The notes under the pieces: generated by a model
What the model saw: the letters and a program-made list of their open reading frames with translations, nothing else
Database searches by the model: none
What the model was told of the DNA's origin: nothing
Assembly: GCA_026982655.1 (NCBI GenBank)
Contig: JALSGO010000083.1
Coordinates: 30 to 64,029, forward strand
Reading direction: 5' to 3'
Source of the DNA: Candidatus Bipolaricaulota bacterium
GTDB taxonomy: Bacteria > Bipolaricaulota > Bipolaricaulia > RBG-16-55-9
Length of the DNA stretch: 64,000 bases
Translations under genes and position numbers: made by a program
Shown: piece after piece, positions 61,504-61,681 of the stretch
Position numbering within the stretch: the first letter of the stretch is position 1
Layout: each line of letters opens with the position of its first letter

Positions 61504-61542
61504 GGGGGGGGGGGGGGGGGGGGGGGGGGGGGGGGGGGGGGG
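61504..61542. repeat. Homopolymeric poly-G tract (39 nt) followed by direct repeat GATCYCCCCTTGC x2
   Basis: Read directly in the intergenic region 61487-61681. Confidence 0.9.
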
Positions 61543-61681
61543 AGATCCCCCTTGCGTTGGGATCTCCCCCTTGCTATCGTGAACCTATGTCGTTACGGAG
61601 GGAAACGTTCATCGCGCTGCGTCCGCAACCGGGGCGCACCGAGACCCTGAGGCACAACTCTGAGGAGGAGGGGATGAGCCC

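Follow-up and report, generated by a model that had tools for sequence, protein, structure and literature searches.

Between two genes of an uncultured Bipolaricaulota strain stands a run of 39 consecutive G residues, which raises the question of whether so long a homopolymer belongs to the genome, gained its length in sequencing or assembly, or marks a place where unrelated contigs were joined. We analyzed the 64,000-nt stretch of DNA that contains it (the window), which comes from a 64,034-bp contig of a GEM/IMG Bipolaricaulota metagenome-assembled genome (MAG); homologs of its proteins carry the names Candidatus Bipolaricaulota/Bipolaricaulia. The run and its intergenic setting are exactly as given in the preliminary description of this DNA (Table 1). 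The tract starts 17 nt past the TAA stop of a gene for a TP_0789-like/LolA-like protein, the last gene of a YHS-MMPL-TP_0789-like cluster, and 139 nt separate its end from the ATG of a YVTN/rhodanese gene. The window has a G+C content of 66.6%, and its other homopolymers are a G9 at 9204-9212, one G8 and two G7 runs, with C runs of at most 6 nt; in 82 related loci from public contigs (455 kb) the longest homopolymer is 9 nt. With a probability of 0.34^39 per position and a next-longest run of nine, a chance origin of G39 is impossible. The G9, the second-longest homopolymer of the window, is a plus-strand run in coding sequence, corresponding to Pro-Pro-Pro near the C-terminus of a minus-strand CMD gene (carboxymuconolactone decarboxylase/AhpD-like). 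Two long poly-Gly open reading frames running through the tract, at 61360-61650 and 61500-61685, are spurious.

Table 1. Coordinates of the features discussed, in window numbering except for the counterparts in relatives
Feature	Position	Strand	Basis or remark
G39 homopolymer	61504-61542	+	direct read of the window letters
Direct repeat GATCCCCCTTGC / GATCTCCCCCTTGC	61544-61555 / 61561-61574	+	repeat search
Perfect 12-bp inverted repeat GGGGGAGATCCC / GGGATCTCCCCC	61538-61549 / 61559-61570		12/12 complementary; 9-nt loop CCTTGCGTT
17-bp perfect palindrome GCAGCCGT-A-ACGGCTGC	61477-61493		centered on the TAA stop of the TP_0789-like gene
Candidate sigma-70-type promoter TTGCGT-17-TATCGT	61552-61580	+	motif; -35 at 61552-61557, -10-like at 61575-61580
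Upstream gene, TP_0789-like/LolA-like "outer membrane lipoprotein-sorting" protein, 286 aa	60626..61486	+	ORF, Pfam PF17131, homolog names
Downstream gene, YVTN beta-propeller + rhodanese protein, 480 aa	61682..63124	+	ORF
Methyltransferase gene after YVTN/rhodanese	63132-63890
Lineage-specific 195-nt spacer	61487..61681	+	in place of the relatives' YgaP-like_TM gene
Counterparts of window 61487-61681 in relatives	L004 3873-4082; L005 3862-4068; L079 2243-2464; L080 2761-2970
GC palindromes TCCCACCCC-N4-GGGGTGGGA	32479-32502 and 45348-45371		near-identical, perfect 10-bp stems

The run had been suspected of being a two-colour Illumina poly-G artefact at a mis-joined contig end. Such a chimera, with unrelated contig ends glued by poly-G read tails and the last 2.5 kb foreign to the first 61.5 kb, would agree with the position of the tract only 2.5 kb from the end of the 64,034-bp contig and with the status of poly-G tails as a known two-colour artefact (PMC6129281). 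The suspicion is contradicted by an independent contig, ENA ERZ27262642 k141_51617 (26.6 kb, MEGAHIT naming), which was found by exact-protein look-ups and carries the same genes. This contig begins at window position 57504, crosses the site with tract flanks identical to those of the window, continues for a further ~20 kb and runs beyond the window end. At least four relatives (L004, L005, L079 and L080; protein identity 78-84%) keep the order MMPL / TP_0789-like / (small gene) / YVTN-rhodanese / methyltransferase across the site, and base composition is uniform on both sides of the tract. The spanning contig and the synteny thus place the two sides next to each other in the genome, and what comes after the run is the native right flank. 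The contig is correctly joined here, the flanking genes are true neighbors, and a chimeric origin is extremely improbable; accordingly, the 64-kb contig should not be split at the tract. The breakpoints of the two assemblies differ, the ENA contig ending at window position 57504 and the window contig at 64,034, where the latter stops within a gene of 744 aa; in the ENA contig this gene is complete, and a multicopper oxidase gene follows it. The region, with its YHS, MMPL, multicopper oxidase, P-type ATPase and CsoR genes, has the appearance of a metal-resistance island.

The same contig provides a second allele. Over 6,497 aligned columns, k141_51617 and the window differ by one SNP (57691) and one indel, and the indel is the tract itself: k141_51617 reads CTTGC-GGGGGGGGG-A-GGGGGGG-AGATCC, that is G9-A-G7 (G9AG7), 17 nt in place of G39. 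The doubt voiced at the outset about a native length of 39 was therefore justified, this being the only other observation of the locus. The ENA assembly shows 3 SNPs against the window in ~10 kb (~0.03% divergence), whereas Logan contigs from SRR7968108 match it at 100% identity over 3,171 and 1,374 nt. The two alleles therefore trace to separate though extremely similar populations or datasets, and the window probably derives from the reads of SRR7968108 or from a sibling read set. The coding G9 at 9204-9212, taken as a control, is the same in the window, ENA and Logan assemblies, so that the discrepancy is specific to the intergenic tract. The polymorphism is known from two assemblies only, G39 in the window and G9AG7 in ENA. 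The 31-nt right flank had 0 exact DNA matches among JGI metagenome contigs, so that no additional alleles were obtained, and 90%-identity cluster look-ups with both flanking proteins gave single-member clusters without other strain-level copies. Protein-guided locus searches of GTDB genomes and JGI metagenomes recovered only relatives of at most 84% identity, none with the spacer or a long G run, and a literature search on the run and assembly accessions gave no match. Elsewhere in the ENA assembly, positions 1-442 of contig k141_50959, which correspond to window ~9600-10048, also match window 20811-21253 at 78% identity, which points to a diverged duplicated segment or to two paralogous genes in the window.

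The spacer around the tract is itself peculiar to this lineage. In nine relatives (L003, L004, L005, L007, L008, L009, L053, L079 and L080), a gene of 68-73 aa with a YgaP-like_TM domain (PF11127) directly follows the TP_0789-like gene. Judged by this comparison of gene content, the window strain is one that has lost the small gene. The window contains no ygaP-like copy elsewhere, and alignments of the spacer to the ygaP-like gene or to the intergenic DNA of relatives gave shuffle-level scores with no trace of a remnant; weak spacer matches to relatives were rejected as chance on the same grounds. The relative L052 (76% identity) is also without the YgaP-like_TM gene but has a different spacer. 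The more distant ygaP-less relatives L010, L054 and L013 carry G/C-run hairpins right after the orthologous stop, and in the L010 hairpin GCGGGGGGGGAGGC...GCCTCCCCC the G8 exceeds its C5 partner in length, an asymmetry also seen in the window. In the relatives, the YgaP-type membrane segment may be functionally paired with the rhodanese-domain protein. At the downstream edge of the spacer, a four-codon mini-ORF (ATG AGC CCA TGA, 61675-61686), preceded by the Shine-Dalgarno-like run GAGGAGGAGGGG, overlaps the YVTN/rhodanese ATG as ATGA.

We examined the DNA that adjoins the tract. The 12-bp direct repeat reported previously exists, with copies separated by 5 nt (GTTGG) rather than 4 and with its end at 61574 rather than 61573. 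It is largely a by-product of a perfect inverted repeat, because GGGAGATCCC is nearly self-complementary. The 5' arm of this inverted repeat includes the last five Gs of the tract, and its stem exceeds in length every other perfect short-loop stem of the window; 12-bp stems also arise in 4/20 mononucleotide shuffles. As RNA, the hairpin has a folding energy of -24.6 kcal/mol, and the fold energy of the region is not better than that of dinucleotide/composition-matched shuffles (z = -0.38). Given this shuffle-level energy and the 12-bp stems found in shuffles, we make no structure claim from energy alone. An Rfam 15 covariance-model search gave no gathering-score match, only two chance-level matches of miRNA models to the hairpin (E ~8). 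A consensus scan of 61300-61800 called no intrinsic terminator: the stem is present, its tail is TTGCTATCG and there is no U-tract, which, with the shuffle-level fold, leaves a canonical intrinsic terminator unsupported. The 13-mer repeat motif has no copies elsewhere in the window beyond chance, and a dispersed repeat of the REP/MITE type was rejected for GATCYCCCCTTGC, which has 4 two-mismatch matches in the window against 7 expected.

Two further symmetries surround the tract. The 17-bp palindrome at the upstream stop codon, whose right arm is part of the lineage-specific spacer, is absent from the gene ends of relatives; the 8-nt arms of an inverted repeat, CCGTAACG (61481-61488) and CGTTACGG (61591-61598), bracket the tract, the dyad and the candidate promoter. 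Both may be due to chance. The G-quadruplex (G4) potential proposed earlier can be upheld at the level of motif and predicted fold. The pattern (regex G3+N1-7 x4) is found at 61495-61542 on the non-template (coding) strand, and both alleles match it, G9AG7 being parsed as GGG-G-GGG-GGA-GGG-G-GGG. With G4 energies in ViennaRNA, the predicted minimum-free-energy fold of both alleles is a G4 plus the hairpin.

The dyad also surrounds part of a putative promoter for the YVTN/rhodanese gene. The candidate -35, TTGCGT, falls in the loop between the two arms, the promoter spacer takes in the 3' arm, and 9 nt separate the end of the G tract from the -35 downstream of it. The pattern TTG-N20-TATCGT, which was chosen post hoc once both sites were known, occurs twice in 64 kb against an expected 0.11, a count reached in 0/100 shuffles. 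The second occurrence, TTGACA-17-TATCGT at 32440, ranks first among the sigma-70-like sites of that region with 10/12 and precedes a Rieske-like gene and a gene for a copper-type P-type ATPase. A consensus promoter scan of 61300-61800 returned none, TTGCGT-17-TATCGT falling below threshold with a -35 match of 3/6. We therefore regard this site as a lead, not a demonstration. If it is a promoter, the dyad around the -35 would have an operator-like layout, and the tract would occupy about -48 to -64 in the G9AG7 allele or -48 to -86 in the G39 allele.

Elsewhere in the window, the two near-identical GC palindromes both lie at sigma-70-like promoters, the site at 32440 and TTGATC-18-GATAAT at 45345, and the first is upstream of the Rieske-like gene and the P-type ATPase, which has an HMA domain. 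Just after this ATPase, an ORF at ~35984-36226 (+) is of the CsoR family (tblastn with a CsoR query sequence, E = 2e-22). Both palindromes share the core CCCACCCC...GGGGTGGG with the M. tuberculosis CsoR operator and so probably serve as CsoR operators in a copper-resistance island.

Poly-G artefacts of two-colour instruments arise in 3' read tails (fastp paper, PMC6129281; also PMC13465854). We simulated reads of the native G9AG7 allele at extreme depth, 50% of them with poly-G tails of random length, from either strand, and evaluated them at k = 21, 31, 33, 39 and 55. All k-mers of the native path were present at every k, and exit k-mers, in which at least eight Gs are followed by AGATCCCC... 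(AGATC...), were never generated at k = 21-55. A simple 3'-tail artefact cannot yield a long G run followed by an intact right flank. A block of mis-called cycles is likewise a poor fit, since it would overwrite the flank rather than insert 22 nt, and the flanks are intact. The simulation and the intact flanks together mean that G39 needs either real long-G molecules adjoining both flanks or a processing error of some kind.

Our preferred reading, which we hold tentatively at a little short of even odds, is that the tract is a native slippage-prone G-rich site within the 195-nt spacer and that long G runs were really in the sample. Whether the source sample contained a real long-G allele or the run was over-extended technically is close to a balanced question, the former having not quite an even chance. 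On the technical side, which we rate as somewhat under even, the true sequence would be the ~17-nt G9-A-G7 or similar, and 22 extra Gs would have come from sequencing or assembly, by de Bruijn loop traversal or collapse, error correction or other processing at a G-rich site; the locus would then be a GC-rich spacer, of constant length in vivo, with a hairpin or operator. Short-read metagenome assemblies are notorious for rendering long internal homopolymers unreliably. The sole independent assembly of the strain is without G39, and the run is an extreme outlier, with no other homopolymer exceeding 9 nt in the 64 kb of the window and 455 kb of related sequence, which gives a technical cause a high prior. 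To pass from G9AG7 to a real G39 requires both the loss of the interrupting A and a 22-nt expansion at ~0.03% divergence, which counts against a real G39. A real G39 would also far exceed the phase-variable tracts on record for bacteria, with 7-11 Gs in the promoter poly-G tracts of Treponema pallidum (PMC7864442), and poly-G artefacts are documented (PMC6129281, PMC13465854). Against a technical length, no concrete mechanism fits a 22-G insertion with both flanks intact, tail artefacts cannot precede the right flank in our simulation, and an artefact would have had either to fall by chance on a site already rich in G or to be provoked by that site. Two k-mer ideas were not used as evidence: 39 is one value in the default k-mer list of MEGAHIT, which is numerology, and SOAPdenovo-type encoding turns N into G. 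The exact length of 39 is unreliable even if long G runs are real.

If the long runs are real, loss of the interrupting A would leave a pure run of at least 17 Gs, which could readily expand by slipped-strand mispairing and so give rise to long-G molecules in the source sample. The dyad adjoining the tract would bracket the -35 of the candidate promoter for the YVTN/rhodanese-methyltransferase genes, and because the tract abuts this dyad, changes in its length could affect promoter-proximal DNA. Such changes would move or distort the DNA upstream of the promoter, either as rigid poly(dG).poly(dC) or through a G-quadruplex on the non-template strand, the difference between G9AG7 and G39 displacing the DNA beyond the tract by about two helical turns. 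A longer tract would also lengthen the G-rich segment 5' of the strong GC hairpin in the upstream operon's transcript. Slipped-strand variation of the downstream gene, as suggested previously, is thus compatible with the data and gains some support from near-identical populations that differ at the tract (G39 and G9AG7) and from the 9 nt between the tract and the candidate -35, but a technical origin of the extra 22 Gs still competes with it. In its fullest form, as a truly hyper-expandable poly-G contingency locus of a free-living Bipolaricaulota that switches between an interrupted, stabilized G9AG7 and a pure run of at least 39 Gs and tunes the YVTN/rhodanese-methyltransferase module through promoter geometry or a G-quadruplex, the proposal is quite improbable. 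The element could instead act in RNA, the GC hairpin, with or without an RNA G-quadruplex, terminating or stabilizing the MMPL/TP_0789-like operon transcript and having no role at a downstream promoter; tract length would then vary neutrally, whether G39 is real or artefactual. The hairpin, of considerable predicted stability, starts 30 nt (G9AG7) or 52 nt (G39) past the stop codon, similar G/C-run hairpins follow the orthologous gene in the ygaP-less L010, L054 and L013, and the predicted fold combines a G4 with the hairpin. This element is nonetheless not called as an intrinsic terminator, having no U-tract, its fold energy equals that of shuffles, and the genes of most relatives stand close together and are probably co-transcribed. 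We consider a purely RNA-level function rather unlikely.

The tract length in the record should be flagged as unverified. If long G runs are real, they represent an unusually large homopolymer expansion between populations ~0.03% diverged, close to a candidate promoter, and would extend slipped-strand "contingency" behavior beyond pathogens to an environmental bacterium; against a biological origin, contingency loci are, to our knowledge, not established for this organism, an environmental, uncultured bacterium. Should the contingency-locus proposal prove true, the module would lie in a copper/sulfur-stress island, its tract would exceed all other functional bacterial homopolymers by a wide margin, and phase variation would occur outside host-associated pathogens. 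If G39 is technical, it is an insertion-type poly-G error at a native G-rich site, which falls outside the usual "poly-G tail" reasoning and would be useful to know for MAG quality control.

Comparison with known systems places the locus near several of them. The CsoR/RcnR-family operators resemble it in their copper-resistance context with a CsoR-family gene and in a dyad of G and C runs over a promoter. In the window dyad, however, the G-run comes first (G5-AGAT-C5), an order that a strand flip does not convert to C-first, and by sequence it is unrelated to the two probable CsoR sites CCCACCCC-N4-GGGGTGGG at 32479 and 45348. A rho-independent terminator likewise has a strong GC-rich stem-loop soon after a stop codon, but the window hairpin has no 3' U-tract, a 9-nt loop with a -35-like hexamer and a shuffle-level fold. 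The G-quadruplex sequences of bacterial regulatory regions share the motif with the tract, which would be atypical among them as a pure homopolymer; the window holds only 8 + 12 G4 motifs.

The closest parallels are with poly-G tracts whose length varies. In T. pallidum, promoter poly-G tracts (tprE/G/J, tprL, tp0126) modulate transcription through their variable length (PMC7864442). These tracts, and the poly-G/poly-C tracts of porA and opc in N. meningitidis, stand in or near the promoter of a gene whose product is exported or part of the envelope (PMC7864442), as the window tract may do, and differ in length between or within close populations, the mechanism there being slipped-strand mispairing with length-dependent transcription. 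They measure 7-11 (up to ~17) nt, are placed inside or between the promoter hexamers and have effects that were measured, whereas the window tract is 17 or 39 nt long, lies 9 nt upstream of its candidate -35 and has a length difference known from two assemblies of an uncultured environmental bacterium. The two-colour Illumina artefact (NextSeq/NovaSeq) also appears as a long pure G run in short-read metagenome assemblies, but it is found at 3' read tails, contig ends and chimeric joins (PMC6129281), whereas the window tract is internal, at a native G9AG7 site with contiguous flanks. The tract belongs with the slippage-prone homopolymeric tracts or else with homopolymer-length errors.
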